Assembly (NCBI GenBank): GCA_964430265.1
Contig: CAYSEI010000003.1
Location: 1,070 to 65,069, forward strand
Reading direction: 5' to 3'
DNA: 64,000 nt
Origin: an uncultured Pseudomonadales bacterium
GTDB lineage: Bacteria > Patescibacteriota > Microgenomatia > UBA1400 > CAYXSR01
Program-made: the position numbers and the translations under genes
Notes under the pieces: model-generated
Databases searched by the model: none
What the model was told of the DNA's origin: nothing
Seen by the model: the letters and a program-made list of their open reading frames with translations, nothing else
Part shown: one piece after another, positions 4,794-59,569 of the stretch
Layout of the letters: each line of letters begins with the position of its first letter
Numbering within the stretch: the first letter of the stretch is position 1

Positions 4794-4800
4794 TTATATT

Positions 4801-5511: not shown

Positions 5512-5512
5512 T

Positions 5513-6016: not shown

Positions 6017-6017
6017 A

Positions 6018-7175
6018 TTAAATTATTAACCCATACATAAATCCGGCAAGGGTTGTTAAAACCGTAATCGAAACTGCATAAACAAATGTCTTTTTTGTGC
6101 CAATAAGCTTACTGATTACCAAAAGCCCCTGAAGAGATAAAACCGGATCAGATAATAAATAAGCCATTAATGGTCCTTTATGCATACCCAATTCCATAAA
6201 ATTCTCTGCAATCGGTACTTCTACTAAAGCAGGAAAATAAGCAATTGCGCCAAACAAAACAGCAACAAAATTAGTTAAAATATTATTATTACTAGCTAAA
6301 GCCTGAAACTGTTTTTCAGGAATTATTTCAGTCAATGCTGAAGCAAAAAATACCCCGATTAAAAGCAAAGGAATAATTTGGGTAACAAATTTTATTGTTT
6401 CATTCCACCAAGCTTGTCTTCTTGAAGAGGAAAGCCAGCCAAAGGTCATTATTACCTGGATTAGAATCAAAGGCAGAACTAATCCATACCTTAAACCACT
6501 ACTAATCGGGGCAGTGCCGACTATTAAGATTGCTATCAATGTGCCCCAAAAAAAGCCTGTTTTCTTGCCTTGCAAGCGGTCCAAATCCTCTTTAATTATT
6601 TGTGTCTCTCCGTCTTCATGTCCATTGCCAAAAACAACCTCCATAATTATTCCGGTTAAAACTGCAAATGCTACTGAAAAAATAAACCGGATCAAGCTAA
6701 AACCCCAACCCAATCTCTGCCCGGTCAGAACTAAAGTAACAAGATTAAACGCCGGCCCGGCATAAAGAAGAGTAACCGCAACTCCCAAACCAGCACCCTT
6801 TTTCCAAATACCGGCAAAAAGGGGTAGAATCGTGCAAGAGCAAACTTGAACAAGAAAACCACTAGTAACAGCAATTACGTAAGCTAAGCCTTTTTTTGTT
6901 TTGCCGGATAAATATTTTAAAACCTGGCTGGAATCAACTAAACTATTAATTGCTCCAGCAATAAAGAAAGCCGGGATTAAACAAAAAAGAACATGTGCGG
7001 AAAGATAATCAACCAGCCCAAGCCAGCCTTGATAAACTGCCTGGCCAATTAACTCCTGAACTGTTTCTTGGGCAAGAAAACCGCCAATCTGATCCTGCCA
7101 CAGATAAATAATCAAATAGGCACCAGACAATAAGCCAATAACCCAGTTTTTTTTAATAATTTTAAATATTTTCAT
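6018..7175 (-). CDS. DUF318/ArsP-like permease
   Basis: 385 aa multi-TM with an intramembrane CSC motif (VQVCSCTILP). Genomic association with Thioredoxin_3 and ArsR genes. Confidence 0.6.
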   Translation of the reverse strand: MKIFKIIKKNWVIGLLSGAYLIIYLWQDQIGGFLAQETVQELIGQAVYQGWLGLVDYLSAHVLFCLIPAFFIAGAINSLVDSSQVLKYLSGKTKKGLAYVIAVTSGFLVQVCSCTILPLFAGIWKKGAGLGVAVTLLYAGPAFNLVTLVLTGQRLGWGFSLIRFIFSVAFAVLTGIIMEVVFGNGHEDGETQIIKEDLDRLQGKKTGFFWGTLIAILIVGTAPISSGLRYGLVLPLILIQVIMTFGWLSSSRRQAWWNETIKFVTQIIPLLLIGVFFASALTEIIPEKQFQALASNNNILTNFVAVLFGAIAYFPALVEVPIAENFMELGMHKGPLMAYLLSDPVLSLQGLLVISKLIGTKKTFVYAVSITVLTTLAGFMYGLII

Positions 7176-26775: not shown

Positions 26776-27240
26776 TTATCTTGTAACAGTAATTGAGTCT
26801 ACTAATTCTCCAGAAGCAGAAGCAACAATCCTACCATTAGCATCTTCATAAATTGTATATTGTGTATTTGCCTGAGTTCCGCTGACCGGATCTGCTGGCA
26901 TTTCAGCAATATAAGTCGGCACAATGGTTTCTGTTCCTGCTTCGTTCGTTGCTGCAGCTAAATTAAAACAAGGAGCTGCTGTACCAATGCAAGTCGGTGA
27001 ATCCGGGAAGTTGCTGGTACTATCATCAGCATCAGTATCTGGCAAATTACCATTGTGTTCAGCTGAAAACTGATAAACAGCGTTGGTAATTGAATACAGG
27101 TCGCTGCGACGCTGTGTGTCTCTGGCATTAGCAAATTGTCTTCCCGGGTTAACCGCGACTAAAACAATTGCTGCCAAAATAGCAATAACACCAATAACAA
27201 CCAAAAGCTCAATTAAGGTAAAACCTTTTTTTAGTTTCAT
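26776..27240 (-). CDS. Type IV pilin / pseudopilin (prepilin-type N-terminal cleavage and methylation domain)
   Basis: MKLKKG|FTLIELLVVIGVIAIL, with Glu at +5 and a hydrophobic alpha1 helix. Confidence 0.85.
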   Translation of the reverse strand: MKLKKGFTLIELLVVIGVIAILAAIVLVAVNPGRQFANARDTQRRSDLYSITNAVYQFSAEHNGNLPDTDADDSTSNFPDSPTCIGTAAPCFNLAAATNEAGTETIVPTYIAEMPADPVSGTQANTQYTIYEDANGRIVASASGELVDSITVTR

Positions 27241-27306
27241 ACGTTTTCACCTCCTTTCATTTCTCTTAGTTTAATATTAACAAGCCGGCTATTTTTGTCA
27301 AATAGA

Positions 27307-27729
27307 TCAGCGTACAACTTCGATTGTCCCTGTTCCAACTTCGCTTTCTGCTCTTACTACAATTCTTCCTTCAGAATTTTGATAAATATCATATCCCGTG
27401 TCTTCTGCCGTCCCTGTACTTGGATCTTGAGGAACTTCAGTTATATACGTGGGAACAATTATTGATCCCAAATCATAACAGGAAGCTCCGGTTCCAATAC
27501 AAGTAGATGTTTCCGGAAAGTTAGTTGGGAAAATTCCTTTATTTTCTGTTACGTATTCATAAACAGCATTAGTTATAGAATACAAATCACTGCGTCGCTG
27601 TGTATCTCTGGCATTGGCAAATTGTCTACCGGGGTTAACTGCAACCAAGACAATGGCAACCAATATAGCAATGGTTCCAATAACTACCATGAGTTCTACC
27701 ATGGTAAAGCCTTTGTTATTTTTATTCAT
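27307..27729 (-). CDS. Type IV pilin paralog
   Basis: MNKNNKG|FTMVELMVVIGTIAIL. The first 60 mature residues are near-identical to the neighbouring pilin (AVNPGRQFANARDTQRRSDLYSITNAVY), and the C-terminus diverges. The likely start is the internal Met at 27729 rather than the ORF start at 27753. Confidence 0.85.
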   Translation of the reverse strand: MNKNNKGFTMVELMVVIGTIAILVAIVLVAVNPGRQFANARDTQRRSDLYSITNAVYEYVTENKGIFPTNFPETSTCIGTGASCYDLGSIIVPTYITEVPQDPSTGTAEDTGYDIYQNSEGRIVVRAESEVGTGTIEVVR

Positions 27730-28105
27730 TATCTCCTCCTTGTGTGTTTTCATTTATTGCAGATCCTGTTGCTTGTTTGTTTTCTTCTGCTTTTTTATCT
27801 TCTTGTTCTGTTTCATTTTCTTTGTTATTTTGGTCATTTTGTTCTTCATTATTTTCAACTTCATTTATCAGCTGTTTTATTTTTTCTTTCTCAATCCCAC
27901 TATTTTCAAAGGAATTTATAGTTGTAACCGCCTGGTCCACTTTATTTTTATTTAAAACCGGGTTTTTTTGCTGAACTATTTGTTCATTAATATTTTGTGA
28001 TGTTTGCCAGCTATTTATTATTGTATACCCAGAAAAGATAAATAAAAAGCCCAAGGCAAATATAAAAACAATACTGATAATAAATGTTTCACTAATTTTT
28101 TTCAT
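27722..28105 (-). CDS. Small membrane-anchored protein with an acidic, low-complexity tail
   Basis: 127 aa with one N-terminal TM, then a Glu/Asn/Lys-rich region. Sits between the pilin and pilO-like genes. Confidence 0.3.
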   Translation of the reverse strand: MKKISETFIISIVFIFALGFLFIFSGYTIINSWQTSQNINEQIVQQKNPVLNKNKVDQAVTTINSFENSGIEKEKIKQLINEVENNEEQNDQNNKENETEQEDKKAEENKQATGSAINENTQGGDNE

Positions 28106-28664
28106 TTAATTCCTCAAAATCCTGATCAACATAAATAAATAAATTGAATTCTGCTCGAACTTCTTTATCTTCAATATCCGGAGAAGTCAGGGTAAATTTC
28201 TGCGATCGGAAAAAGTAGGGTGATTTCTGTAACAAATTCAAGCTGTTTAATATTTTTGGCCAACTATCTTCGATTACTAATGTTAAAGGAAGATATGCAT
28301 TGCCATTAGCATCTTTCAAAGGCATATCTGAATCAAATGTAAAAATCTTTAAATCCGCTGATTTCTCAATTTTATTTATTAGATCAATAAAATCAACTAT
28401 TGATTCCGCATTGGGGAAACTTTTTTCAATTATTTCTTTTTTTGTTTGAATGTTTTCTAAATCTACCATAGTTTTCTGATAATTTTGCTGACTGATCTTC
28501 TGTGCCATTAATTCAGAAGAAACTTTTTGGATATTTTCCGCTTTTAAAGGTAAAAAATATAAAACAGCTATATTGGCAATTAACAATATAACGTCAACTC
28601 CGATTATTATTTTTAAAAATGAACTTAGAAATGGTTCTTTTTTCTGCTGTTTAATTTTTTTCAT
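28092..28664 (-). CDS. PilO-like type IV pilus assembly protein
   Basis: 190 aa with a short cytoplasmic N-terminus, one TM, a coiled coil and a periplasmic domain. Lies immediately downstream of pilMN. Confidence 0.5.
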   Translation of the reverse strand: MKKIKQQKKEPFLSSFLKIIIGVDVILLIANIAVLYFLPLKAENIQKVSSELMAQKISQQNYQKTMVDLENIQTKKEIIEKSFPNAESIVDFIDLINKIEKSADLKIFTFDSDMPLKDANGNAYLPLTLVIEDSWPKILNSLNLLQKSPYFFRSQKFTLTSPDIEDKEVRAEFNLFIYVDQDFEELNEKN

Positions 28665-30090
28665 TATTTATTATCTTAAAAGACAAACTGAAATTTAAAT
28701 TTTTCTCTTTTTCAAGATTGGAAATTGGTATTATTACACCTTTAAATTTTTCCTCCTCAACTAATTTTCTTTTTAAATTCAATAAATCTTCTCTGTCAGA
28801 AGCTGTTCCCGCCAAAATTACTTGCCCTGTTTGCATATCATATTCAAGATCAGTCAAACTAATATTTTCCGGTGAGAGTTCAATAATTTGAAAAACAATT
28901 TCTTGAGGAAAATTACGTGAGTTTGCAAGGTTTAAAACTTTTTGGCTCTGCTGATTAATTGCTCTTATATTACTTGCTTTTGCAGCAGTTAAAGAAAGAT
29001 TCATACTTTGCATTTGTTTTTTCTTGTTCAAAGAATTAATTCTGTTATAAAAAAACAAATAGGTTCCAATACTTGCAAGAGAGGTTGTAATAATAGCAAT
29101 TGTTGAAATCATAATCCAACGTTTAAGTGTTTTTCTACGTTTTTTTCTGTCATATTTTTTTTGAATTTGGGGAGGCAAAAGATTTATTGTTGTTTCATCT
29201 CTAGGTGCAGCAACTTTTCTCTGACAAAGAGAAATTGTTGTAATAAACCTGTTTAAAGCTTCTTTTTTAAGCCCGCCTATCTGTAAATTACACAATTGTG
29301 ATTTTTTTTCCAAACTACTCTCTACTTTTTGTTGCAGTTCTTTTCCTGCTTCTTGTCCGCATAAGTGAATTTCTTTAATTTCCTCTTGATACTTATCTTC
29401 ATAAAAATTACTCATTCTTTTTAAAGTCTGCAGAAAATATGCCTCGCCTACGCCATTTTCTTTGCCTGTTAGGGAGACAACTGAGCTTGCCATGATTTCT
29501 GCACCTTTACAAAGGGTTAAAGTAGCAGCTTGAGGCTGGACTTCAGCTACAATGGTTAACTCTTTTTTATCTTCTACCAATCGCGCCAAAGATATTGAAG
29601 TTGTTTCAAATGAAAGTGGATGTAGACCGGCTTTTTTAAAAGCTTTGACATATCCATTTACAATTTTTTTTGGAATTGAGACTGCTAAAACCGTATGCCC
29701 CGATGAATTGTCAGACTTAATAATACGCCAGTCTAAATAACTTTCTTCAATAGGAGTCGGCAAAAAAGTTTTTGCCTGCCAACGAACAGCTTCATCAATC
29801 TCATTTAACTTAATATCCGGAAAAGTTATCACTTTAGTAAAAACCTTTTCCTCCGGAATACCAACAATTACTTTTTCCTGCTTGATACTGTTTTTTTGCA
29901 AAATCTGGGTAATCAAAGAAGCAAGCTTGTCAATATCAACAACTTCACTTACATTAATAATTTCCGGGGATATCTGTTGTTCAATAGCTTTAAGAACTTT
30001 GTTTCCTTTACTGTTTAAAACCACTAACTGCAGTTTATGGGAAAGAATTGCTAAGCTAAAATAATCTTTCTGGCTATTTAAAATACTCAT
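28651..30090 (-). CDS. PilM-PilN fusion (actin-like ATPase-fold PilM plus TM and periplasmic PilN domain)
   Basis: 479 aa. The first roughly 330 aa are PilM-like (two RNaseH-like subdomains). A basic stretch and TM helix (WIMISTIAIITTSLASIGTYLFFY) follow, then a PilN-like domain. Confidence 0.7.
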   Translation of the reverse strand: MSILNSQKDYFSLAILSHKLQLVVLNSKGNKVLKAIEQQISPEIINVSEVVDIDKLASLITQILQKNSIKQEKVIVGIPEEKVFTKVITFPDIKLNEIDEAVRWQAKTFLPTPIEESYLDWRIIKSDNSSGHTVLAVSIPKKIVNGYVKAFKKAGLHPLSFETTSISLARLVEDKKELTIVAEVQPQAATLTLCKGAEIMASSVVSLTGKENGVGEAYFLQTLKRMSNFYEDKYQEEIKEIHLCGQEAGKELQQKVESSLEKKSQLCNLQIGGLKKEALNRFITTISLCQRKVAAPRDETTINLLPPQIQKKYDRKKRRKTLKRWIMISTIAIITTSLASIGTYLFFYNRINSLNKKKQMQSMNLSLTAAKASNIRAINQQSQKVLNLANSRNFPQEIVFQIIELSPENISLTDLEYDMQTGQVILAGTASDREDLLNLKRKLVEEEKFKGVIIPISNLEKEKNLNFSLSFKIINNEKN

Positions 30091-30198
30091 TTGGGCAGAT
30101 TAACTCTATAACTTAAGTATAGTAATAAATTATGCGCTTGTCCATTATTTGCTCTCATTATATCAGAAGGTTTGAAAATTGCTGCAGAATGCGTTTTA

Positions 30199-31530
30199 AT
30201 GAAGCTAATGCCCAATTCCAAAAAAGGTCAAATTTTAATTGAGATTATTATAGCAGTTGCACTCTTAGGAATCTTATTTCACGCAGTTTTTACTTTACTT
30301 AATGGTGCATTTCAAACAGTGGGTGAAGTCCGCGTCAGACAGACTGCCAAACACTTAGCACAATCAAAAATAGAAGAGATCCATAATCTTCCCTATGATC
30401 AGATCGGTACTATCAATGGAATTCCTTCAGGAAGCATAGCTCAGTACGAAAACAAGAAAATGAACGGAATAAGCTACAATATTTTTACTACTGTTATTTA
30501 TGTTGATGACCCTTTTGACCAATTTGCTCCTAATGATACCCTTCCTACAGATTACAAAAGAATCCGCGTAGAAGTAAACTGGAAAGGTCTTTTCCCTTCT
30601 AAAAGACCAATTACTTTAATTACTGACATTGCACCGCAAGGGATGGAAGAAGCAGAAGACGGAGGAACAATCCTTATCCAGGTTGCCGATGCCAATGTAA
30701 ACCCTATACCAAATGCAGAGGTGCAATTAGTTAATGATTCAGTCAATCCGGAGATTAACCTTAATCTTAAAACTAACGATCAAGGAAAGTTATTGATTCC
30801 GGGTGCACCTGCTTGTGCCACTTGTTATTTTGTTTCGGTAACCAAAAACGGTTATACTACCAGTAGAACTTATTCAAATCAAGAAATTGCCAATCCAACC
30901 AAAGCTTATCTAACAGTTGAAGAAGGTGGTTTAACAGATCCTACTTTTTTTATTGATAAAACTTCAACTATAACAATTAAAAGCTATGGCAGCCGGTTAA
31001 ATGGTTTTCCTCCTTTAGGCAATATTACTTTTCATTTACAGGGCACTAAAAAGATCGGCACTGACACTTCAGAAAATCCGGTTTATAAAATAGGCCAGGA
31101 TTACACAACCAACACTAACGGAGAGATAATCTTGGAAGATTTTGAATGGGATAATTATACTTTTACACTTACGGATGATTCCCTTGACCTGGCAGGAAAC
31201 AATCCTTTTGAATTAAATTTACTACCAGACAGTAACCTTGTTTTTCATTTTGCTACTAAAGAGCATGAAAATAACAGCTTGTTAATTCAAATTATGAACA
31301 ACGCTGATGAGCCAATTGGTTCTGCCAGTGCTGAATTGAGTAGAGAAGAATTTAATGAAGCAACTACCAGCGGCAAGATTGATCAGCCAAACTTTGGACA
31401 AGTGTTTTTCAGTCCTCTTGACTCGGGAGAACATGAATTATTTATAAAAGCTGACGGTTATGAAGACACTCAGAATACAATAGATGTATCCGGACAGTCA
31501 ATTGAAAAAATTATTTTACAAGAACAATGA
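30199..31530 (+). CDS. Large minor-pilin-like protein with a divergent prepilin N-terminus
   Basis: KKG|QILIEIIIAVALLGIL has Glu at +5 but Q instead of F at +1. The remaining roughly 400 aa of extracellular region are probably beta-rich. The start was chosen at an internal Met. Confidence 0.45.
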   Translation: MKLMPNSKKGQILIEIIIAVALLGILFHAVFTLLNGAFQTVGEVRVRQTAKHLAQSKIEEIHNLPYDQIGTINGIPSGSIAQYENKKMNGISYNIFTTVIYVDDPFDQFAPNDTLPTDYKRIRVEVNWKGLFPSKRPITLITDIAPQGMEEAEDGGTILIQVADANVNPIPNAEVQLVNDSVNPEINLNLKTNDQGKLLIPGAPACATCYFVSVTKNGYTTSRTYSNQEIANPTKAYLTVEEGGLTDPTFFIDKTSTITIKSYGSRLNGFPPLGNITFHLQGTKKIGTDTSENPVYKIGQDYTTNTNGEIILEDFEWDNYTFTLTDDSLDLAGNNPFELNLLPDSNLVFHFATKEHENNSLLIQIMNNADEPIGSASAELSREEFNEATTSGKIDQPNFGQVFFSPLDSGEHELFIKADGYEDTQNTIDVSGQSIEKIILQEQ

Positions 31531-32147
31531 AACATAAAAAAAGACTTGCCTCACAAAAAGGGTTTACACTAATTGAGCTTTTAGTAGGCATGACCATAGC
31601 AGTTAGTTTGGTTGGTCTGATTATTCTTTTACAAGTTCATTTATCCGAAGACCAGCTGTTCTTATTAAAAAAAAGCTTATCCAACCAAGGAGCAAATGAA
31701 AGTTTAACCCAAATAAAAAAAGAATTACGAAATGTTCAACCAGGAGAAAATGGTGATTACCCATTATTTATTGCCCAAGACTATCAAATCGGGTTTTATA
31801 CGGATGTTGATTTTGACTCAGAAATTGAAAGAGTCCGCTATTTTCTGCAAAACGGTGTCCTGTCAAAAGGAACAATTGAACCTAATGAAAGCTATCAATA
31901 TTTAGAAGAAAACGAAATAATTAAAATTATTAATGAAGACGTTAGAAATACTGATCAACCGCTTTTCTCTTTTTACAACGGAAATTGGCCTGATGATCAA
32001 GAAAATAATCCGCTTGAAACACCAGCACCTTTTGATGAGATTAAGCTGATTAAAATATATTTACAAATTAATACTGAATATGATCCAAACAGTGATTTTA
32101 TATCCGAGTCTTTTGTCAGTCCTAGAATTTTAAAGGAAAACCTATGA
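31527..32147 (+). CDS. Minor pilin (prepilin-type N-terminal cleavage and methylation domain)
   Basis: QKG|FTLIELLVGMTIAVSLVGL. Confidence 0.7.
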   Translation: MKHKKRLASQKGFTLIELLVGMTIAVSLVGLIILLQVHLSEDQLFLLKKSLSNQGANESLTQIKKELRNVQPGENGDYPLFIAQDYQIGFYTDVDFDSEIERVRYFLQNGVLSKGTIEPNESYQYLEENEIIKIINEDVRNTDQPLFSFYNGNWPDDQENNPLETPAPFDEIKLIKIYLQINTEYDPNSDFISESFVSPRILKENL

Positions 32148-33520
32148 AAAAAAATAAAAGAGGCTCTTTAACCATTTCTCTTTTAACCATCAGCGCTTCC
32201 TTTATAATCATTATTTTAGCTTTGTTAATGCTTTTAACAAACCAATTTGACTATACAATGCGTCAGGAAGCACATCAGCAAGCATTAAATATTGCTGAAG
32301 CAGGAATTAACTATTACCGTTGGCACTTAGCTCACGATCAAAATGATTTTCAGGACGGAACTGATAATACCGGTCCATATATTCATGATTATCATGATCC
32401 ACAGGGTAAACAAATTGGCCAATACTCTTTAGAAATTATTCCGCCAGATGAAGGATCCACAGTAGTTACCATAAAATCAACTGGATGGCATAATGAATAT
32501 CCAAATATTAAAAGAACTATAACTGCAAAATTGGGTTTACCTTCTATTACTCAATACTCATCTTTAAATAATACCAGTTTGTGGTTTGGTTCAGGCATAA
32601 CCGTTCATGGTTTGATCCACAGTAATAATGGTATTCGCATGGATGGTGTAAATACTTCAATAGTTAGCAGTGCCAGAGAAACATATACCTGTGGTACAGA
32701 AACAGGTTGTTCTCCTTCTCAGGAAAGACCCGGCGTATGGGGAAGCGGACCTGGCGGAGATCAGGGATTGTGGGAGTTTCCTGTTGCTAATTATGATTTT
32801 GAAGGAATTAACCTTGACTTTCTTAAGATGCGTCAAGCAGCACAAGACAATGGATTATATCTTCAAGATTCACAAGCACAGGGATATCATTTAATTTTTT
32901 CCGGTCAATATTTGAATGTACGTAGAGTAACGGATACTGACTATACTTGGGGATATAGCAGTGAACAAGGCTGTGAAAGACTTTATCAATACATAGATTC
33001 TGAAGAGACTGTTGGAAACTATGATTTATCAGAAACCCCCATTGTTTTTGCTGAAGATAATCTTTGGGTAGAAGGAACCGTTGAAGGAAGAGTTACGGTA
33101 ATTGCTACACGTTTTCCTTTGGATAATAATAATATGAATATTTGGATTGATGATAATTTGCAATACGAATCACACGATGATCACAATCGCTTGGGATTAA
33201 TTGCACAAAATGATATATATTTCTCCCGTAATATTCCTAATGATTTTGTAGTTGAAGGCGCTCTAATGGCAGTTAAGGGACATATTATCAGACACGGATA
33301 TTTTTGGTGGTGCGGCTGGTACAATAATGCAGTCAGAAATTCATTAACAGTCTACGGAACTCTTATTTCTAACCTAAAACCATACTGGAACTACGGAACC
33401 TCACCAACTTCAGGATTTGAAACTAGAACCCATACTTATGATTCTTCTTTACTTTATAATCCTCCTCCTTATTTTCCCACTCAAGGAGAATATAATCTTA
33501 TTTATTGGAAAGAAGATTAA
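32144..33520 (+). CDS. PilX-like minor pilin / tip-associated protein
   Basis: N-terminal TM, then NIAEAGINYYRWHLAH, which resembles the PilX_N motif. Large extracellular domain. Confidence 0.45.
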   Translation: MKKNKRGSLTISLLTISASFIIIILALLMLLTNQFDYTMRQEAHQQALNIAEAGINYYRWHLAHDQNDFQDGTDNTGPYIHDYHDPQGKQIGQYSLEIIPPDEGSTVVTIKSTGWHNEYPNIKRTITAKLGLPSITQYSSLNNTSLWFGSGITVHGLIHSNNGIRMDGVNTSIVSSARETYTCGTETGCSPSQERPGVWGSGPGGDQGLWEFPVANYDFEGINLDFLKMRQAAQDNGLYLQDSQAQGYHLIFSGQYLNVRRVTDTDYTWGYSSEQGCERLYQYIDSEETVGNYDLSETPIVFAEDNLWVEGTVEGRVTVIATRFPLDNNNMNIWIDDNLQYESHDDHNRLGLIAQNDIYFSRNIPNDFVVEGALMAVKGHIIRHGYFWWCGWYNNAVRNSLTVYGTLISNLKPYWNYGTSPTSGFETRTHTYDSSLLYNPPPYFPTQGEYNLIYWKED

Positions 33521-34179
33521 TCAAGCATTTCACTGCAAACAGTTTCTGAGACAACAAAGTTTTCTTTGCCTTTCTCCGGTTCTTCAAAGTTACAACGAAA
33601 TGGCTTCTGACTGGCACTGGGTTCATCAGAAGGTGAAGGATACAACGGCTCCGGACTGTAGTTACTACTTGGTTCGGGTTCGGAAATGTATGTTTCCGGA
33701 ACCACAGGCGCAGACTCTTCAGGTAAAACAGGACTGGGTGAAGGCATTATTGAATTTTCATCACTGCTTTCTTCCAAAATCCGAACAATTTCTTCAAACT
33801 CTTGTAGATTAATAATATCTTCGGAAATATATGCCAAATCTTTTATATTGTCCAAATCAATTATTATGTTTCCCATTTCGTCAGAAAATCTGTCTGCATC
33901 TAGTTGGGACAATTTAGCAAACAATTGATCAATTTTATTTTTATCCCAATATTGCATAATTGTTCTGTCCGGGGTTTTGATGGTTACTTGACCGCTACGA
34001 TTTACTGTTACCGAACTTCCCTTTTTTTTGAATTCCACTTGCTCAATAGTCTTGGATTTGTTACCACTTCCTGTACCAGCAGAAGGATTAACAATAAGAT
34101 AAATTCCTAATCCCAAAAACGTAAAAGCAACTAAAATCCCCAAAACTATTTTTGTAGACTTACTAATTTTTGTTTCCAT
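33517..34179 (-). CDS. Hypothetical membrane-anchored protein with a Pro/Ser/Glu-rich C-terminus
   Basis: 220 aa with one TM. Downstream of pilC in the same operon. Confidence 0.3.
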   Translation of the reverse strand: METKISKSTKIVLGILVAFTFLGLGIYLIVNPSAGTGSGNKSKTIEQVEFKKKGSSVTVNRSGQVTIKTPDRTIMQYWDKNKIDQLFAKLSQLDADRFSDEMGNIIIDLDNIKDLAYISEDIINLQEFEEIVRILEESSDENSIMPSPSPVLPEESAPVVPETYISEPEPSSNYSPEPLYPSPSDEPSASQKPFRCNFEEPEKGKENFVVSETVCSEMLD

Positions 34180-35402
34180 TATAAACTGGATCCTGCTTGT
34201 CCTTGTAAATTACCAACCACACTATAGATCGGTCCGATAATTGAAATCACCATTGCTCCTACTGCAACTCCGATTATCAACATTAAAGCCGGTTCCAATA
34301 AGCTAACAAACTTTTTCAGTGATGTTTCCACCTCTTCTTCATAAAAAGTTGCCAAGTCCATTAAAATCTCATCTAAAGTCCCGCTTTCTTCTCCTGCTTT
34401 TATTGTCTGCATCATTATGGGAGGAAAAACTTTTTCCTCTTCTAGGATAATTGACAAAGAGGTGCCTTTTTTGATCTTTTTGTTAAAATGCTCAGAAAAT
34501 TTATCAAATTTGTTTTGTGAAAGCGTAAGCGCAGAAACATTCAAAGCTTTAATAATCGGAACACCCGTTGCTAAAAGCAAAGATAAAGTCCGGGAAAAAC
34601 GTGCTAAATCCAAATGTTCCATTAATCTATTAATTATTGGCATTTTGGATAAAAAATTCATAATTGCTCTTCTTGTGGAGGAGACTTTCATCAGAACTAC
34701 AAAGCCCACGATTGAAAGCACAAAACCTCCAACAACAAAAAGTGCATGGTTCCCCAACCATTTACTTACTGACAATAAAATTTGCGTTGGCAGAGGTATA
34801 TTAATATTCATACTAATAAAAACATTACCAATCTTTGGCAAAACAAAAGTCATCATAGCTATTCCTACAGCCACCATGGCAGTTAAAACCACAATTGGAT
34901 AAGCCAATGCTCCTTTTACTTTTTGTGTCAACTGATGCTGAGACATTAACTGAGTCGCCAAATAATCAAACGTTTCTTCCATTTTTCCTGATTCTTCACC
35001 AGCCTCAATCATGGTAATAAAAACTTTATCAAAAACATTGGGAAAGCGGGAAAATCCGTCTGAAAGTGATTCTCCTTTTTTAATTCCGTAATAAACATCC
35101 TCTAATATTGCCCGCATTCTCTTGTTTTCTGTTTCAGAAATAAATATTTCAAAAGCTTCATTAATCGGCAAGGCTGCTTTAAGCATAATTGACAAGTGAC
35201 GGCAGAGAGTAGCTTTTTCAATAACAGGAATTGTTAAAAAATTATCAAACAAAGAAGCTTCTTTGTTGCGTTTTTTAATTGATAAAACTTTATAGCCTTT
35301 TTCCTGCAATAATTGGGCAGCATCTTCTTCATTAACAGCAGTGATTCCGTCAGATATAATTTTACCGTTTTTGTTTTCCGCTTTATATTGGAAAAGAGGC
35401 AT
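34179..35402 (-). CDS. pilC: Type IV pilus inner-membrane platform protein PilC (GspF/T2SS-F family)
   Basis: 407 aa with two T2SSF repeats and 3 TM. Adjacent to pilB. Confidence 0.85.
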   Translation of the reverse strand: MPLFQYKAENKNGKIISDGITAVNEEDAAQLLQEKGYKVLSIKKRNKEASLFDNFLTIPVIEKATLCRHLSIMLKAALPINEAFEIFISETENKRMRAILEDVYYGIKKGESLSDGFSRFPNVFDKVFITMIEAGEESGKMEETFDYLATQLMSQHQLTQKVKGALAYPIVVLTAMVAVGIAMMTFVLPKIGNVFISMNINIPLPTQILLSVSKWLGNHALFVVGGFVLSIVGFVVLMKVSSTRRAIMNFLSKMPIINRLMEHLDLARFSRTLSLLLATGVPIIKALNVSALTLSQNKFDKFSEHFNKKIKKGTSLSIILEEEKVFPPIMMQTIKAGEESGTLDEILMDLATFYEEEVETSLKKFVSLLEPALMLIIGVAVGAMVISIIGPIYSVVGNLQGQAGSSL

Positions 35403-35403
35403 T

Positions 35404-37083
35404 TTAGTCCTTTAAAACTCTTAATACTTCATCAATAGTTGTCAATCCTGCAGCTACTTTATTTAACCCGTCTTCCATCAAAGTAACCATCCCTTTTTGT
35501 CTGGCAACTTTTTTAATCTTGTCACTGGATGATTTGGCAATAGTCAATTCCCTAATTTCTTCGTCAAAAGGTAAAATTTCAAATACACCAATTCTGCCTC
35601 TATAGCCCGTATTACGACACTCCTCACACCCTTTTCCCCTATAAAATTTTTGTTTTGTTACTTTTTCTCCCAGTTCTTTTGAAAATAAATCAAGAGTTTT
35701 CTGCTCCGGTTGGTATTCTTCTATGCAACTCCGACAGATTTTTCTTACCAATCTCTGAGCAATTACTGAATTAATTGTTGAAGCAACTAAGTATCCTTCC
35801 GCTCCCATGTCCAAAAAACGGGGGATTGCACCGGCCGCATCATTGGTATGCAAAGTTGATAGAACTAAGTGACCTGTCAAAGAAGAATGAATTGATATTT
35901 CTGCAGTTTCTTCATCCCTGATCTCTCCAACCATGATAATATCCGGATCATGTCTTAATAAGGACCGCAGCCCGGCTGCAAAAGTTAAACCTGCTTTAGG
36001 ATTAACTTGTGTTTGTGTAATCTGCTGCATACCATATTCAATCGGATCCTCAATAGTACAAATTTTTACTTTAATTGTGTTGAGGATGTTCAAAATACTA
36101 TATAAAGTTGTTGTTTTACCTGATCCTGTTGGACCGGTAACCAGAATCATTCCGTGTGGTTTTTCAATGCTATTTCTGATTAATTCCAAGTTCTTGTTTC
36201 TTAGTCCTAATTCTGAAAGTCCCAAAGGACGCGCACTTTCAGTTAACAAACGCATTACCACATTTTCGCCGTAAAATCCGGGAATTACGGAAACACGCAA
36301 AGCAACTGATTCATTGTCTATTTCAAATTTAAACCTCCCGTCTTGCGGAACACGATGTTCATCTATCTTCAAAGAAGCCAAAATCTTTATTCTTGCTACT
36401 AATGCTCCTTGTATTTCTTTGGGTAGATTAATAATATCCTGCAAAACTCCGTCTATACGAAAACGCACTATTACTTGCCCTTCAAAGCTTTCTAAATGAA
36501 TATCAGAAGCTCTTTCTGCTGCAGCAAATTCAATTAAAGTGTCTAAAAGTTTAATAACTGGTATTTCTTCTGCCGCTTCATTTGGCTCTTTTTTCCCTTT
36601 TTGTGCTTCTTCAATGTTTTCCAAAATATTTTCTTTAAACACTTTTTTAAAACTTTTTTTGTATTGCCCTAAACTTTTACTTAAATCATCTTCCATTATT
36701 AAGTAAGGAACAATACGTTTCCCTGTTTTCCGTTTGGCAAATTCCAAAACTTCAAAATCTTTTGGGTCTTCCATTGCTAGATGCAGATTATCTTTTTCAA
36801 CTTTAAATGGCAAAATACGATAATTCCGTGCCAAACGCTCAGGAATCAAGTTTAGAACATTTTCAGGTATTACAGTACCACTTAAAGAGATAAAGGGGAC
36901 ATTAAGATGTTCTGCAACTAATTGACCCAAAGCTTTTTCTGTTATTAAACCTCGAAAAATCAAAACATCTTCCAGGCTTTTTTTCATTTCTTTGGCTGTA
37001 CTTACAGCTTTTTTAAGTTCTTTTTCATCAACAAACCCTGATTTGAGCAGGATTTCTTTCAGAGTTTCTTGTTTTAATTTCAT
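35404..37083 (-). CDS. pilB: Type IV pilus assembly ATPase PilB (GspE family)
   Basis: Walker A GPTGSGKTTTLYS. N-terminal GspE_N domain. A C-terminal tetracysteine CxxC...CxxC (CRSC...CEEC) is present. Confidence 0.9.
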   Translation of the reverse strand: MKLKQETLKEILLKSGFVDEKELKKAVSTAKEMKKSLEDVLIFRGLITEKALGQLVAEHLNVPFISLSGTVIPENVLNLIPERLARNYRILPFKVEKDNLHLAMEDPKDFEVLEFAKRKTGKRIVPYLIMEDDLSKSLGQYKKSFKKVFKENILENIEEAQKGKKEPNEAAEEIPVIKLLDTLIEFAAAERASDIHLESFEGQVIVRFRIDGVLQDIINLPKEIQGALVARIKILASLKIDEHRVPQDGRFKFEIDNESVALRVSVIPGFYGENVVMRLLTESARPLGLSELGLRNKNLELIRNSIEKPHGMILVTGPTGSGKTTTLYSILNILNTIKVKICTIEDPIEYGMQQITQTQVNPKAGLTFAAGLRSLLRHDPDIIMVGEIRDEETAEISIHSSLTGHLVLSTLHTNDAAGAIPRFLDMGAEGYLVASTINSVIAQRLVRKICRSCIEEYQPEQKTLDLFSKELGEKVTKQKFYRGKGCEECRNTGYRGRIGVFEILPFDEEIRELTIAKSSSDKIKKVARQKGMVTLMEDGLNKVAAGLTTIDEVLRVLKD

Positions 37084-37466
37084 GGCAGTGAATTGTTATC
37101 TACGTCTTTAAGATGTGGCTTAATTTTTTCTACAACTTGATTAGGTGTTAAGTTTGCTTTTACTAAATACTCTTTAACGCCCATTTTTTGAGCAGCATTT
37201 CTTTTTTCCGGATCAGAAAGATTGGAAAGAATTACAACCGGAACACTTTCACCTCCGGGTAAAGAACGGATTTTTTTAAGTGCATCCAAACCCGACAGTT
37301 TAGGAAGCATAATATCAAGAAGAACAAAGTCCGGATTTTCTTTTTCAAAAAATTCCACAGCTGCCTCACCTTCTGCAACAATACTAGTCTCTATACCCAA
37401 ATTCTTTAATTTTGTTGCATACATTCCAGCAATCAAAGAATCATCTTCTGCTATTAAAACTTTCAT
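37080..37466 (-). CDS. Stand-alone response-regulator receiver (CheY-like) protein
   Basis: MKVLIAEDD...LLDIMLP, with the phospho-acceptor Asp and conserved Lys. 128 aa and no output domain. Confidence 0.8.
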   Translation of the reverse strand: MKVLIAEDDSLIAGMYATKLKNLGIETSIVAEGEAAVEFFEKENPDFVLLDIMLPKLSGLDALKKIRSLPGGESVPVVILSNLSDPEKRNAAQKMGVKEYLVKANLTPNQVVEKIKPHLKDVDNNSLP

Positions 37467-37485: not shown

Positions 37486-39621
37486 TCAGGTGTCAGCTGC
37501 AACTGACGGAAGAGTAAAGTAAAAAGTGGCTCCTTTTTTTGGCTCAGAATTAACACCTATTTTTCCACCCATACGTTCAATAAAAAGTTTGGAAATATAC
37601 AAGCCTAATCCTGTCCCGCTTTTTTTATCATCTTCCGAGGTTTCCAAACGCGAGAATTTTTTAAATAATTTACTTTGTGCTTCTTTATTAATACCCGGAC
37701 CTGTATCTTCCACTTCCACCTTGACTTTATTTTTCTTTTTAAAACAGCAGACAATAACTTTGCCTTTATCAGTATATTTAATTGCGTTACTTACTAGATT
37801 AATTATTACCTCCTTAATTTTGTCCAAATCAGCTTCAACTATACACTCGTTTTTATTACCGTTAGTATATTTTAATTCCAAATCTTTTTGTTTGGCTTCT
37901 ATTTGAAAACGATCAACAATTTCTTTACAGACTTCTTCCAAATTAAATTTAGAAACCTCTAAATCCAACCGTCCTGATTCAATCCGGGAAACGTTAAGCA
38001 TGTTATTAACCAGTCTAATCATTCTTTGTGCCCCCTGGGAAGCATCATCAATCAGTTTCTCTGCTTGCTCTGGCAAATCACCTGCATCACCATCTGCTAA
38101 CATGGATAAATATCCATTAATAATGGTTAAAGGTGAACGCAGTTCGTGTGAGGCCATGGAAACAAAATCATCCTTAAGTTGTGAAACTTGTTTAAGCTTT
38201 TTATTTGCTTTCTGTAATTCTTGTGTTGCTTCATTTACTTCTTTTTCTAAAGTTTGGCTAAACTTTTTAATCTCCTCAAAAGATAATGCGTTTTGTACAG
38301 CAACAGCAATTTCCGGAACCATAATCATCAAAGCTTCTATATCCTTTTCAAAATATATATCTCCTGACAATTTATGGTCTAAAATCAAAAGCCCCACATT
38401 GTTTTTTTCAACTCTAAGAGGGAAAATAAAGCCGGCATTGTGTTTACGCATCCACTCTTTTAATTTACTTTCTTCCATTTCATCAAATATAAAAGGACCT
38501 TTTCTTTTAAGAAACTGCAAAATTTGAGAATATTTAAGGTTATTGAAGCTCATTTTATTTTTATATACATGTTTTATTTCTCCCTTTTTAACCACCACAA
38601 TTGCACCTTCTTTTATCTTCATCTCTTTTAAAATAGTTTCCAAGGCTTTGGGAGCAATTTTATTTAGATCCAAGGAAGAACTTAAATAACCACCGACCTT
38701 GTTTAATAATTTTTCCGTCTCATAGCGATCTTTGAAAAATATGTCGTCTGTAATTCCCTCAAGATAACGTCGTAAAGGTTGAAAAGTTAGTGCAATTAAA
38801 AAAGCTAAACCTCCATTAATCAGCATTTGTTGTGTTCGTACAATTTCACCCGTCAGAAAATAACTGATACCAAAGATCACTACAATATAGAATGCTTCTA
38901 ATGTAGTTAAAAGCAGTGCCCAAGAAACAGTTTTTGCAACAACTAATCTAATATCAAAAAGACGGTGTTTAATAATTGCATAAGTAACAAAACCAACCAA
39001 AACCAAAGAAAAAGTGGGACCTAAAAACATAAATCTGGATGTCTGTAAAAGAAACAAAAACACGAAATTAGTTAAAGCACCAAAAAGAAAAGTTGCTATT
39101 ATTCCGGCAATAAAAAACTTAAGCTGTGTTTTTTTTAATCCCCTTGCTTGCAAAAATCGTTTGATTAAAACAATACAAGCTGCAATAAAATAACCGATTA
39201 AAGTAATTGCGTATAAGACTATCGCTGGCCCTGGACTAGGTTGAATATTTCCAGACTGAAAAGAAACTGAAAAAAACATAAAAGGAGTAAATGTTGAAAT
39301 AGCTGTTAAGAAGGTTAAGAAACTTAATATAAAAGTCCAAGATTTTCTAAGTTCTAATTTGTCCTCGGGGAAAGTTTCTGCAAGAAACAAAAGCAAAAGT
39401 CCTGCCGGCGAAGTAACAAACATCACCATTCTGATCCAAAAAAGAGTTTGTTCTGGGGTCTGTGAAAAAAGAGAAAAATAGTTTGCTATTGACCAACTTC
39501 CAAAACAAACAGTAAGTGCAGATAATAATCTATGGGAGGCACCTTTGGGATTTTTTAAAAATACAAAAATACCTAAAATAAAATTAAAAAAGGCAGTTAA
39601 TAAAGAAATAACAAGTTCCAT
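37486..39621 (-). CDS. Sensor histidine kinase with a polytopic N-terminal membrane domain
   Basis: About 6 TM at the N-terminus. H-box MASHELRSPLTIINGY. N, G1 and G2 boxes include DTGPGI and GTGLGL. Confidence 0.8.
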   Translation of the reverse strand: MELVISLLTAFFNFILGIFVFLKNPKGASHRLLSALTVCFGSWSIANYFSLFSQTPEQTLFWIRMVMFVTSPAGLLLLFLAETFPEDKLELRKSWTFILSFLTFLTAISTFTPFMFFSVSFQSGNIQPSPGPAIVLYAITLIGYFIAACIVLIKRFLQARGLKKTQLKFFIAGIIATFLFGALTNFVFLFLLQTSRFMFLGPTFSLVLVGFVTYAIIKHRLFDIRLVVAKTVSWALLLTTLEAFYIVVIFGISYFLTGEIVRTQQMLINGGLAFLIALTFQPLRRYLEGITDDIFFKDRYETEKLLNKVGGYLSSSLDLNKIAPKALETILKEMKIKEGAIVVVKKGEIKHVYKNKMSFNNLKYSQILQFLKRKGPFIFDEMEESKLKEWMRKHNAGFIFPLRVEKNNVGLLILDHKLSGDIYFEKDIEALMIMVPEIAVAVQNALSFEEIKKFSQTLEKEVNEATQELQKANKKLKQVSQLKDDFVSMASHELRSPLTIINGYLSMLADGDAGDLPEQAEKLIDDASQGAQRMIRLVNNMLNVSRIESGRLDLEVSKFNLEEVCKEIVDRFQIEAKQKDLELKYTNGNKNECIVEADLDKIKEVIINLVSNAIKYTDKGKVIVCCFKKKNKVKVEVEDTGPGINKEAQSKLFKKFSRLETSEDDKKSGTGLGLYISKLFIERMGGKIGVNSEPKKGATFYFTLPSVAADT

Positions 39622-39662: not shown

Positions 39663-40859
39663 TTAAGATAGTGCTGTCAAAACTGCTTCACCGATGTTCG
39701 GAGGAAAAAAATTTTTAACAAATTCTTGAACTTCTTTTCTTGAAGCTGACGATTCTAAGGGAGTAATTATAGCTCTTTCCGGAACCTTTTTATTTAAAAT
39801 ACATCTTTTTAAAAAGGCTGCTTCTGCTCCACTGGTAACACCTACAACTGAGCGCATCTGTGCAAAACTGCAAATTTCGCCTTTCATTTGCATTTCCAAA
39901 GACCTTAATAGTGAAGATGAAACATTTTCAATTCCCACACCTGCTGCAATAATAACAGGTAAAAGCGATTGTTGTTTTTCTTTGTCTTTTGACAACTCCA
40001 TCATTCTTTCCCTATTAAATCTTCCCAGTATTTTTTCTAGTCTACCGTGAAATACAGGCAAGTCTTGGTTTAAAGAAAATCTCTCAATATCAACAATTGC
40101 CCCTTGACCTTCCAAATTGGTTCCCATAACCACATCTTTGCCAAGCTCCCTAGAAATAACTCTTAGCCAAAGTTTTGTCAATCCATTATCACAAGCATCA
40201 ACAATATATTCTGCATTGTTAATAGCTTTTTCCATGTCTTCCGGCCTGAGATATTGTGCAAAAGGATGAATATTGGCTTCAGGAAAGATTTCCCAAGCTC
40301 TTTGTGCTGCAACAACAGCTTTTTCTTTTCCCTTATCTGCATTAGTAAAAACAGAACATCTGCCCAGATTTGAAGCCGCTACTTTATCTCCATCCCAAAT
40401 TTCTAAGCTTCCTTCCAGACCAATTCCAATTCCTTCCCTTACCAAACAATCCATAACTTCACTTCCCGTACTTGCACCCACTATAAGTACTTTTGCCGAT
40501 CCCAATTCTTGAACTTGCTCCCTGTTTGTCACTCCTTCATGGCGTGAAAGAACTAACCGCGCGTGTTCATTTCTTGGTAACAAATGATAAATTTCTTTTT
40601 TCCAAGGCAAATAAACCCATCTACCGATTTTTTCAGGACTTGTTCCGTTTTCCTGTGTAAACGCTTGCATTTCATCACGAGTCAAACACTCATCCAACTC
40701 TTTCAAATCCTGCTCCACGGTATCAAATACTTCAATCCTTGTTTTTTTTAAAAGTTCCGGTCTAAATTCAAGATCAGCAGCTTGCCTTATTATCGGTTTT
40801 TGATCCTCTAAACTTGTGTGTTCATGATTGATTACACCAGTTTGTTTTTCAGGACTCAT
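39663..40859 (-). CDS. ThiF/MoeB/E1-like adenylyltransferase with unusual N- and C-terminal extensions
   Basis: Rossmann region KVLIVGASTGSEVMDCLVREGIG with a non-canonical glycine loop. DGDKVAASNLGRC matches DxDxVxxSNLNR. DKGKEKAVVAAQR is present. DACDN is the E1 DxxDN-like motif. No Zn tetracysteine. The ATGA start/stop overlaps the upstream ORF. Confidence 0.65.
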   Translation of the reverse strand: MSPEKQTGVINHEHTSLEDQKPIIRQAADLEFRPELLKKTRIEVFDTVEQDLKELDECLTRDEMQAFTQENGTSPEKIGRWVYLPWKKEIYHLLPRNEHARLVLSRHEGVTNREQVQELGSAKVLIVGASTGSEVMDCLVREGIGIGLEGSLEIWDGDKVAASNLGRCSVFTNADKGKEKAVVAAQRAWEIFPEANIHPFAQYLRPEDMEKAINNAEYIVDACDNGLTKLWLRVISRELGKDVVMGTNLEGQGAIVDIERFSLNQDLPVFHGRLEKILGRFNRERMMELSKDKEKQQSLLPVIIAAGVGIENVSSSLLRSLEMQMKGEICSFAQMRSVVGVTSGAEAAFLKRCILNKKVPERAIITPLESSASRKEVQEFVKNFFPPNIGEAVLTALS

Positions 40860-41557
40860 TTCTCTCCTTTAAAAACGTATAATTCAGGCTTACCCATAAT
40901 AAATTTTTTCCAGTATCCGGGAAAATTATCAAACAAAGTTTTCGCTTTAGGATCCTCTTCTTTTAAAAACATATTTTCTACTTTTTCTATTCTTACTCCC
41001 GAACTATCCACAAAAGCCGCTACTCCCGAAGGCATAATTGCATAAAGCATTTTAATTCCCTGTCTTTCTGCTATTTTTTCAGTTGCTCGATAAAGCATTA
41101 ATGTCATTTTTTGCTTAGTTTCCCTTGGAGTCCCCGGATCAAAAGCAAACTTGCCCAATTCTCCTATTTGACTGACATCTAATCCTTTTCTTTCATGCGG
41201 CCAGTTTCCTTGCACTCCTACCCAGTTTTGTGCGTCTATAGCTTGCCATTCTTCATTTCCTTTTGAACCCATAATCAGTCTTAGAGTCGCCTTTGTTTCA
41301 CCCCAAAAATTAGCAACTACTGTATGTGTTAATCCTTTTTGGTTGTAATAATCTTCACAAAGATAATTTTCAATTTCTTCTCTGCTTAGTTCTTTCCCTG
41401 TATAAGCAGAGTAGCCTGTAATTACCAGCTCCTGAACAGCACAATTTCTTTTTCCATTTTCAACACAGGCAGTGATAATTGGCTGGCCTTCCGGAGAAGT
41501 CCTGCTAATTTCAAAATATTCGTTGTGTCCTGGATTATGAAGTCTTTCCATCTTCAA
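40856..41557 (-). CDS. Hypothetical protein translationally coupled to the E1-like gene. A GNAT-fold acyltransferase is one possibility but is unverified.
   Basis: 233 aa with no family recognised. Its stop overlaps the E1-like start by 4 nt (ATGA). Confidence 0.3.
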   Translation of the reverse strand: MKMERLHNPGHNEYFEISRTSPEGQPIITACVENGKRNCAVQELVITGYSAYTGKELSREEIENYLCEDYYNQKGLTHTVVANFWGETKATLRLIMGSKGNEEWQAIDAQNWVGVQGNWPHERKGLDVSQIGELGKFAFDPGTPRETKQKMTLMLYRATEKIAERQGIKMLYAIMPSGVAAFVDSSGVRIEKVENMFLKEEDPKAKTLFDNFPGYWKKFIMGKPELYVFKGEK

Positions 41558-41652
41558 TAGGTTAACAAAAAAAATCCCGAAAATCTAGAGTTATTAGATA
41601 TATTCTAAAAGTAAAGCTTTCCCAGTTTAATAATCTTCTGATATAATAAGAA

Positions 41653-59065: not shown

Positions 59066-59569
59066 TTAGTATTGATTTAAATGTATTTTTTCTTTTTCAA
59101 AGTCAGCTTCGGAATGCTCTGGCTTTTCATTGTCCGGATAACCAATCGGCATTAAACACAGTACCCGAACATTTTCTGGAATGCTTAGTGTTTGCCTAAC
59201 GTGTTGTTCGTGTTTTGTTGTGTCATTATGCCTTACTTGTATAAAACAGGTTCCTAATTCTTGGTTGGTTGCTTCCAAGTAAATGTTTTCACTTGCAATA
59301 CTGCAGTCTTCTATCCAATTATGATGCTTTTTACTTGAAGCAATTACTATAATTACTGGTGCATGTTCAGCAAAACTTGCCCAGGAAGTTGTTTGTGAAA
59401 GCTTGTCTTTTAGTTTTTTATCTTTAACAACAATAAATTCCCAAGGCCGGCAGTGGTTTGAAGAAGGCGCAAACTGAGCTGCTTTTAAAACCTTTTCTAG
59501 TTTTTCCTCTTCTATTTCTTGATGCTTGTAATTACGATAACTGCGTCTTTTTTTAATTGCATCCAACAT
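59066..59569 (-). CDS. Nitroreductase-family protein
   Basis: N-terminal RRSYRNY FMN-binding motif. 167 aa. Confidence 0.75.
   Translation of the reverse strand: MLDAIKKRRSYRNYKHQEIEEEKLEKVLKAAQFAPSSNHCRPWEFIVVKDKKLKDKLSQTTSWASFAEHAPVIIVIASSKKHHNWIEDCSIASENIYLEATNQELGTCFIQVRHNDTTKHEQHVRQTLSIPENVRVLCLMPIGYPDNEKPEHSEADFEKEKIHLNQY

Follow-up and report, generated by a model that had tools for sequence, protein, structure and literature searches.

What is made by a ThiF-like adenylating enzyme whose gene overlaps that of a small acyltransferase-like protein and is followed by genes for a membrane sensor kinase, a stand-alone receiver and type IV pili? The question is raised by a 64,000-nucleotide stretch of DNA (contig CAYSEI010000003.1, positions 1,070 to 65,069 of the forward strand; assembly GCA_964430265.1) from an uncultured bacterium of the Patescibacteriota, referred to in its whole length as the window. 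An earlier note, written from the letters of the window, took the pair for a plausible undescribed conjugation or modification system of the kind seen with MccB, Bil, Cap2 or the maturation of ribosomally synthesized, post-translationally modified peptides (RiPPs). Homology points elsewhere: at the level of the enzyme families, the pair is probably a relative of the described small-molecule pathway in which an N-acyl amino acid synthase (NAS) works with a ThiF-like cyclase (OxzAB/TyzACB/TrzAS type), and therefore not an undescribed conjugation system. The wider reading, in which the pair would belong to a synthase-receptor signalling cassette controlling pili, is given about an even chance.

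The candidate N-acyl amino acid synthase

Both genes of the pair lie on the minus strand. The small open reading frame (ORF) occupies 40856..41557, running from 41557 down to 40856, and encodes 233 amino acids from a TTG start; the ATG at 41551 is the likelier start, giving a 231-aa product (P0013) as gene callers have it elsewhere. The gene for the ThiF-like enzyme, here called E1 (39663..40859, 398 aa), follows directly, with its ATG and the upstream TGA sharing the letters ATGA (junction sequence ...GGAGAGAAATGAGTCCT), and a GGAG stands about 6 nt 5' of the E1 ATG. Coordinates, overlap and the same-strand genes for a histidine kinase, a receiver, PilB and PilC downstream are all as the earlier note had them.

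A word-index homologue search with the small protein returned the protein itself and nothing else, and an exhaustive HMMER search returned 79 homologues. The family carries the motifs WPH, GELG(R/K)F, LYAIMP and YW..P.LY, all of them present in the window protein, so that its earlier description as motif-less does not hold; the family alignments are without any conserved stretch of 7-10 columns. The family profile reaches the N-acyl homoserine lactone (AHL) synthase EsaI, its best sequence-profile match in the PDB, with an E value of 3.8e-5 over the E-x-(S/G)-R-F core. Pfam FeeM is matched by 12 of 66 family members and Autoind_synth by one of the 66, and a ThiF domain is joined to the NAS domain in the homologues P0032 (Candidatus Levybacteria, 641 aa) and P0040 (692 aa). 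Because of the EsaI match, the FeeM matches and the ThiF fusions, the family is assigned to the LuxI/FeeM branch of the GNAT fold, and the window protein becomes a candidate N-acyl amino acid synthase. Consistent with this assignment, its structure model has a three-layer alpha/beta/alpha GNAT-like fold and resembles LasI, TofI and FeeM, with LasI and TofI as the top neighbours. Of the two guesses that had been offered for the partner, the GNAT-like one thus stands and the E2-like one falls. A second borderline sequence match is to an exosortase-associated acyltransferase (E 0.036).

Gene contexts for the family were gathered by per-protein look-ups of homologues at 28-38% identity. Among more distant homologues, P0046 and P0060 carry a fused FAD-linked oxidase domain (FAD_binding_4), and at one locus (L030, 2-2080) such a fusion is followed by a PEMT-family methyltransferase. 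These fusions may represent an alternative acylate-then-oxidise route that does without ThiF.

The ThiF-like partner

The larger protein matches Pfam ThiF (PF00899) at 95.9 bits (E 2.7e-27), above the gathering score, and has the Rossmann-type E1 fold. Its core motifs are present as first described, namely WDGDKVAASNLGR at residues 155-167, K180 and DACDN at 221-225, along with the glycine loop VGASTGS at 127-133. All of the ATP/Mg-binding residues are kept (G128/S130/G132, D156/D158, N164-R167, K180 and D224), and the 398-aa protein is, to judge from these residues, probably an active adenylating enzyme of the ThiF/E1 type. The top-scoring NCBIfam model is NF005901, that of Rv1355c/TrzS, which is matched at 134.6 bits over profile positions 20-326 of 722, the ThiF half only, and identity to proteins that pass the cut-off of this family is 23-31%.

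Several features that had seemed unusual are ordinary for this clade. The G-x-S-x-G glycine loop, thought to be non-canonical, is the clade norm (clade motif GLSVG[HN]) and is found also in proteins above the Rv1355c family cut-off. The N-terminal ~110 aa, read as an extension, are a folded domain common to the Rv1355c family, whose profile is matched from position 20, and residues 40-100 are modelled with a pLDDT of ~90. The C-terminal extension of ~150 aa was overstated, as the Pfam ThiF match reaches residue 348 and residues ~260-398 make up a mostly helical, clade-conserved subdomain. A zinc tetracysteine is indeed absent, with no CxxC among the cysteines at 58, 138, 168, 223, 330 and 353, but its absence is not unusual for an Rv1355c-type enzyme; nor is any cysteine invariant across the clade alignment. 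The profile and structure searches proposed for both proteins came out LuxI/FeeM-like for the one and Rv1355c-type for the other, with AclA (9egb) as the nearest structure to E1.

Relatives of E1 were sought by scans of genomes and metagenomes, and the loci found were annotated with local hidden Markov models (HMMs). A word-index search gave three real relatives but not E1 itself, although the 231-aa neighbour from its contig is in the collection searched; a profile re-search added few. Two Rv1355c-family proteins, P0094 and P0095 (966 and 968 aa), carry an extra N-terminal region of ~300 aa, and NCBIfam PRK14852 (989 aa) may describe proteins of this kind. The NAS HMM does not match this region, and a triple fusion containing NAS is for that reason not claimed for them.

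Within the loci that hold both proteins (NAS-type loci), the spacing of the two genes is tight, with a 4-nt overlap in L015 and gaps of 2-13 nt in L013, L014, L032 and L033. Together with the overlap in the window and the P0032 and P0040 fusions, these short distances suggest that NAS and E1 are functionally linked.

Relation to the oxazolone synthetases

Three characterised systems combine an N-acyltransferase with a ThiF-like enzyme. In Pseudoalteromonas rubra, the ThiF-nitroreductase OxzB (A0A5S3UR53) has the N-acyltransferase OxzA as its partner (de Rond et al., bioRxiv 10.1101/2020.06.11.147165); in Mycobacterium tuberculosis, the tyrazolone enzymes TyzA (P95232), TyzB and TyzC are encoded by Rv2336-2338c (PMC10404671); and N-acyl tryptazolone synthesis in Mycobacterium is the work of TrzA and TrzS, encoded by Rv1356c and Rv1355c (PMC12856293). 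The common route runs from N-acylation of an aromatic amino acid with an acyl group from acyl-coenzyme A (acyl-CoA), through ATP-dependent cyclisation by ThiF, to desaturation by a flavin oxidase (FDO). Oxazolones do not survive acid or methanol (PMC12856293). A 2025 review names OxzB as the sole ThiF-like enzyme known for a small-molecule substrate. Both groups working on oxazolones call their physiological role unknown and have suggested signalling (PMC12856293; bioRxiv 10.1101/2020.06.11.147165).

TrzA/TrzS is the system that the window pair resembles most in E1, whose best match is the Rv1355c model, N-terminal domain included. Here too a LuxI/FeeM-like N-acyltransferase is encoded upstream of a ThiF-like ATP-dependent cyclase, and the Asp of DxxDN is kept: D224 sits in this clade-conserved motif, where the TrzS literature places the Asp of D217A, a change that abolishes cyclisation by TrzS (PMC12856293). 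The differences are that TrzS has a fused flavin mononucleotide (FMN) oxidase domain of the FDO type and window E1 has none, that identity is only ~23-31% with a score far under the cut-off, and that TrzAS is neighboured by cyclic di-GMP genes where the window has a seven-transmembrane (7TM) kinase and pili. TyzACB and OxzAB follow the same logic of synthase, then cyclase. TyzB is a stand-alone ThiF like window E1, and the reported structural neighbours of TyzA, namely FeeM and AHL synthases (PMC10404671), are shared with the window NAS. Unlike the window pair, these two systems always have a nitroreductase-superfamily oxidase (TyzC or the C-terminal domain of OxzB), and they have no dedicated sensor kinase. 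A further parallel is offered by TcdA/CsdL, the tRNA t6A dehydratase and the second-best PDB sequence family for the E1 clade profile (E 1.7e-19), which is ThiF-like and both adenylates a carboxylate that neighbours an N-acyl (carbamoyl) group and forms a ring of oxazolone type; it differs in acting on tRNA and in lacking both the N-terminal domain of window E1 and a NAS partner.

The missing oxidase

One step of the known route has no counterpart at this locus. Window E1 is without an FDO domain, and an HMM for FDO, made with oxidase domains from related loci, found only one small nitroreductase across the window; there is no FDO in the NAS-type loci L013, L015, L017, L032 and L033 either. 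The nitroreductase (59066-59569, minus strand; 167 aa; Pfam PF00881, 101.8 bits) is of the classical type, and no other gene in the window has the nitroreductase fold. It was considered as the pathway oxidase and judged unrelated, being 167 aa long against ~330-370 aa for the FDO type and lying 18 kb off.

TrzS deprived of O2, or with a crippled oxidase domain, releases a cyclised but saturated intermediate (PMC12856293). Since this is what a TrzS without a working oxidase does and the window has none, the expected product would, by analogy, be a saturated, reactive 5(4H)-oxazolone, or whatever the azlactone ring or acyl-adenylate goes on to acylate. Chemically, such a ring is an acyl donor in activated form, and its acyl group could conceivably be passed on to a nucleophile.

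Conserved gene order with a sensor kinase and pili

Downstream of E1 on the same strand, the window encodes a 711-aa histidine kinase with an N-terminal 7TM sensor (37486..39621; Pfam HisKA_7TM, HisKA and HATPase_c), the candidate receptor. It is followed by a stand-alone CheY-like receiver of 128 aa without an output domain (37080..37466), a PilB-type type IV pilus assembly ATPase (35404..37083) and a PilC-type platform protein (34179..35402; L017 homologue, E 1e-59). The minus-strand run ends with a 220-aa protein that has a single N-terminal transmembrane segment and no significant Pfam match (33517..34179). From E1 through to this last gene the spacings are 41, 19, -4, 1 and -1 nt, the receiver and pilB genes overlapping by 4 nt.

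The earlier suggestion that the pair relates to these genes is supported by comparison with related loci, in which the order NAS, E1, 7TM kinase is conserved. A 7TM histidine kinase gene stands directly after E1 in each of the six independent NAS-type loci with enough flanking sequence (the window, L013, L015, L017/18, L032 and L033). A stand-alone receiver is found in five of these six, with homologues of the window receiver in L013, L015, L017 and L033, and type IV pilus genes lie in or beside four. The closest repeat of the window order is L033, where NAS, E1, 7TM kinase, receiver, a further gene, a second receiver and PilB follow one another, and where PilB matches window PilB with an E value of 3.8e-151. 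In the Levybacteria loci L017/L018, the series is PilB, PilT, PilC, another gene, a receiver in reverse orientation, a NAS::E1 fusion, the 7TM kinase and a pilin; L017 PilB matches that of the window with an E value of 3e-145. L013 has PilM and pilins, then NAS, E1 and the kinase, with a receiver further on; L032 has NAS and E1 followed by a kinase of 7TM-GAF-HK architecture; L015 (Microgenomates) has NAS, E1, a split kinase and a receiver within an ATP synthase operon; and L014 has NAS and E1, after which the contig ends.

Some of these loci have peculiarities of their own. In L015, the whole cassette from NAS to receiver (2317-6582) is inserted between the genes for the ATP synthase gamma and beta subunits, and its kinase is divided between a 7TM gene (231 aa) and a kinase core gene (435 aa). 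In L033, the two stand-alone receivers surround a 61-aa ORF between kinase and PilB (4276-5202), where the window has one receiver. The pilus genes beside the L013 cassette have the same unusual architectures as the window cluster.

A sister cassette with a PaaK-like enzyme

The association of E1 with a kinase extends beyond the NAS-type loci. In a second type of cassette, E1 and a 7TM kinase are accompanied by a 500-558-aa PaaK-like adenylate-forming enzyme, identified by weak PaaK and AMP-binding_C_2 matches, and by a third part that is either an FDO, separate or fused, or a class I/II aminotransferase (both in L021/22). Loci of this sister type come from Saccharibacteria, Magasanikbacteria, Andersenbacteria and unassigned contigs, and may be the 'CqsA homologue / CqsS-like kinase' arrangement that a 2020 study described. 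A 7TM kinase is present in all 11 independent PaaK-like-type loci with enough flank (L001, L006, L007/25, L009, L010, L011, L019, L021/22, L024, L026 and L027). Counting both types, there are 17 independent loci in which the E1 cassette is succeeded by a full-length homologue of the window kinase. Of the 18 independent loci of the Candidate Phyla Radiation (CPR) with enough flank, 17 have a polytopic sensor kinase adjoining the synthase genes, the exception and only such locus without a kinase being L008.

The window cassette is itself a mosaic of the two types. Its kinase is nearest to those of NAS-type loci (L017/L018, E 1e-169 to 1e-176), as is its NAS, and sensor-domain similarity in general follows cassette type. 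With the E1s of PaaK-like or FDO-linked loci, window E1 gives 62-105 bits in nearly every full-length case (less with the frameshifted gene of L011), but with those of other NAS-type loci it gives 46 bits at most. In the alignment of L013-L017, the latter E1s have Q or H in place of K180 and Gly in place of the second Asp of DxD. Because of these divided affinities, the E1s look interchangeable between the two cassette types. The arrangement suggests, moreover, that acyltransferase and PaaK-like ligase perform analogous amide-forming first steps.

A proposed signalling cassette and its alternatives

From the folds, family relationships, fusions and conserved gene order set out above, a working scheme may be assembled, the chemistry of which would follow that of homologous, characterised enzymes. 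NAS would move an acyl group from acyl-CoA or acyl carrier protein onto the amine of an amino acid, giving an N-acyl amino acid. E1 would then adenylate the carboxylate of this compound with ATP, and the amide oxygen would attack the acyl-adenylate to form a 5(4H)-oxazolone (azlactone) ring, as with TrzS, TyzB and OxzB, or else the activated acyl group would be handed on. The ligand, either this amphiphilic product or the N-acyl amino acid from which it is made, would be recognised within the membrane by the 7TM kinase co-transcribed with the pair. Phosphate would pass from the kinase to the stand-alone receiver, which would modulate the neighbouring type IV pilus machinery through contacts with its proteins.

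The last steps, from ligand to receptor and from receptor to pilus, are suggested by synteny and by analogy with Vibrio. There, the autoinducer synthase genes luxM and cqsA lie beside genes for multi-transmembrane histidine kinase receptors, LuxN and CqsS. The likeness is one of gene arrangement, in that a synthase gene adjoins a polytopic kinase without a periplasmic domain and the signal is lipophilic (as is proposed for the window); the synthase chemistry differs, and in place of a phosphorelay to LuxO the window has as its output a stand-alone receiver encoded next to pilus genes. The link between signal and receptor is given somewhat less than an even chance. The boldest generalization, that CPR bacteria possess a cassette in which a ThiF-dependent ligand derived from an N-acyl amino acid (an oxazolone, or a product of the saturated azlactone) acts on a co-encoded 7TM kinase and, through a receiver, switches the type IV pili with which these episymbionts touch their hosts and take up DNA, with an interchangeable LuxI/FeeM-like or PaaK-like amide-forming enzyme, is tentative and must be regarded as doubtful.

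A number of points weigh against the proposed cassette. Neither Pfam FeeM nor Autoind_synth exceeds its gathering score with the window NAS, FeeM (PF21926) giving 16.4 bits (E 0.008) against a cut-off of 27, and E1, at 134.6 bits, is well under the curated cut-off of 476 bits for NF005901. AclA, the closest structural neighbour of E1, is a protein for which no function was found in the literature searched. The pathway is incomplete relative to every characterised oxazolone synthetase, because no NAS-type locus has an oxidase domain or gene, and a saturated azlactone is prone to hydrolysis. The acyl donor is uncertain, as fatty-acid metabolism is generally scant in CPR bacteria. Finally, the ligand-receptor relation and the pilus output have gene order as their whole basis, and the kinase might regulate the enzymes instead.

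The alternative that survives best, rather unlikely as it is, keeps the same enzymology and makes the product a structural, stress or antimicrobial lipid, with kinase and receiver controlling its production or being linked to it through shared regulation of pilus and envelope. Oxazolones and N-acyl tyrosines, which have no known receptor, have been tied to antimicrobial activity and to stress responses; furthermore, the receiver lacks a DNA-binding domain, so that no classic autoinduction loop is apparent. What argues instead for a signalling cassette is that a kinase is adjacent in 17 independent loci, in two cassette types with different amide-forming enzymes, and that the similarity of the sensor domains tracks the cassette type.

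It is improbable that the small protein belongs to the genuine AHL synthases of LuxI type and makes the signal for the kinase, with E1 as an accessory, in keeping with a proposal for CPR bacteria made in 2020. That proposal, by Bernard et al. (PMC7567580), concerns CPR LuxI-like genes beside kinases with a CqsS-like N-terminal sensor, put forward as complete AHL-type quorum-sensing systems; LasI, TofI and EsaI, prominent among the matches of the window protein and its family, also speak for an AHL synthase. The family, however, matches FeeM far more often (12 of 66 members) than Autoind_synth (1 of 66), and its ThiF-like partner, which is obligatory and sometimes fused, has no role in AHL synthesis and is the second enzyme of NAS-to-oxazolone pathways. 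The molecule is argued not to be an AHL because this partner is obligatory. The 18 cases of Bernard et al. may be of the same family as the window NAS.

It is quite improbable that E1 acts on a protein or peptide, adenylating its C-terminus or a side chain in a conjugation of ubiquitin-like (Ubl) type or a RiPP step like those of MccB and PaaA, with the GNAT-like partner modifying the same macromolecule. No E2, JAB, Ubl or precursor-peptide gene was found among the neighbours of the pair in the window or in the related loci examined, the clade has no invariant Cys, the cap2_3 model scores 31 bits against E1, the N-terminal domain is that of the small-molecule enzyme family Rv1355c, and the partner comes from an amino-acid-acylating fold family. 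Least credible of all, to the point of being negligible, is an ordinary MoeB/ThiF sulfur-carrier adenylyltransferase, for which the generic Pfam ThiF match might speak, but which is contradicted by NCBIfam ThiF and MoeB scores of 38-69 bits against cut-offs of 266-376, by the lack of a CxxC zinc site, a rhodanese domain or a ThiS/MoaD gene, and by conserved partners that are an acyltransferase and a kinase. On these two points the earlier note had judged correctly, in setting E1 apart from the housekeeping orthologues and in seeing no ThiS/MoaD-like gene nearby, and no small GG-terminated ORF was found near the pair in the window. The canonical MoeB/ThiF, Ubl-conjugation (Bil, CBASS Cap2, 6A-MBL) and RiPP (MccB, PaaA) roles were thus rejected.

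Surrounding features of the window

Upstream of the NAS gene, purB and purA diverge from the cassette. The 95-nt intergenic region between NAS and purB (41558..41652) is the presumed promoter region of the cassette; promoter-like matches within it are at chance level, as are the results of a terminator scan. Rfam gave no family at gathering score across the 64 kb, and no tRNA, rRNA or riboswitch.

The window pilus cluster extends over ~26.8-37.1 kb. Its remainder beyond the minus-strand run (26776..33520, mixed strands; Pfam N_methyl, PilM_2, PilN and CarboxypepD_reg) comprises two pilins on the minus strand (26776-27240 and 27307-27753), a 479-aa PilM-PilN fusion, also on the minus strand (28651-30090), and minor pilins on the plus strand (30172-33520), one of which (452 aa) has a CarboxypepD_reg domain. 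The GC content of the window is 33%, which together with the nearest relatives of its NAS and kinase suggests an ultra-small, CPR-type bacterium of the Microgenomates group. At 62105-63919 on the minus strand, a 604-aa ORF closes in a long Gly/Ser-rich tail (...GGASGGGGGGGGGGGGGAG).

Implications for CPR bacteria

The idea of quorum sensing by LuxI-like genes in the CPR is not new, having been put forward in 2020. ThiF has no occurrence in the text and supplements of that work, nor are the oxazolone pathway or pili mentioned there (PMC7567580), and no paper in the literature searched ties oxazolones or N-acyl amino acid synthases to the CPR. For such CPR loci, nothing was found in that literature on an obligatory ThiF-like cyclase, on homology with oxazolone synthetases, on a missing oxidase, on the PaaK-like sister cassette or on a tie to type IV pili. 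The present findings would refine the earlier claim of LuxI-type quorum sensing, as the obligatory ThiF partner argues against an AHL.

The oxidase-less form of the pathway poses a chemical question of its own, that of the fate of an N-acyl amino acid at a ThiF cyclase that is not succeeded by a desaturase. The 7TM kinase that invariably follows in NAS-type loci offers a concrete candidate receptor, together with a receiver and a plausible output in type IV pili, and so makes the role of the oxazolones testable. If the proposed cassette is real, it would give the oxazolone pathway a physiological role for the first time and add a new class of autoinducer, and control of type IV pili by such a signal would bear on the attachment of CPR bacteria to, and their contact with, their hosts, and on DNA uptake.

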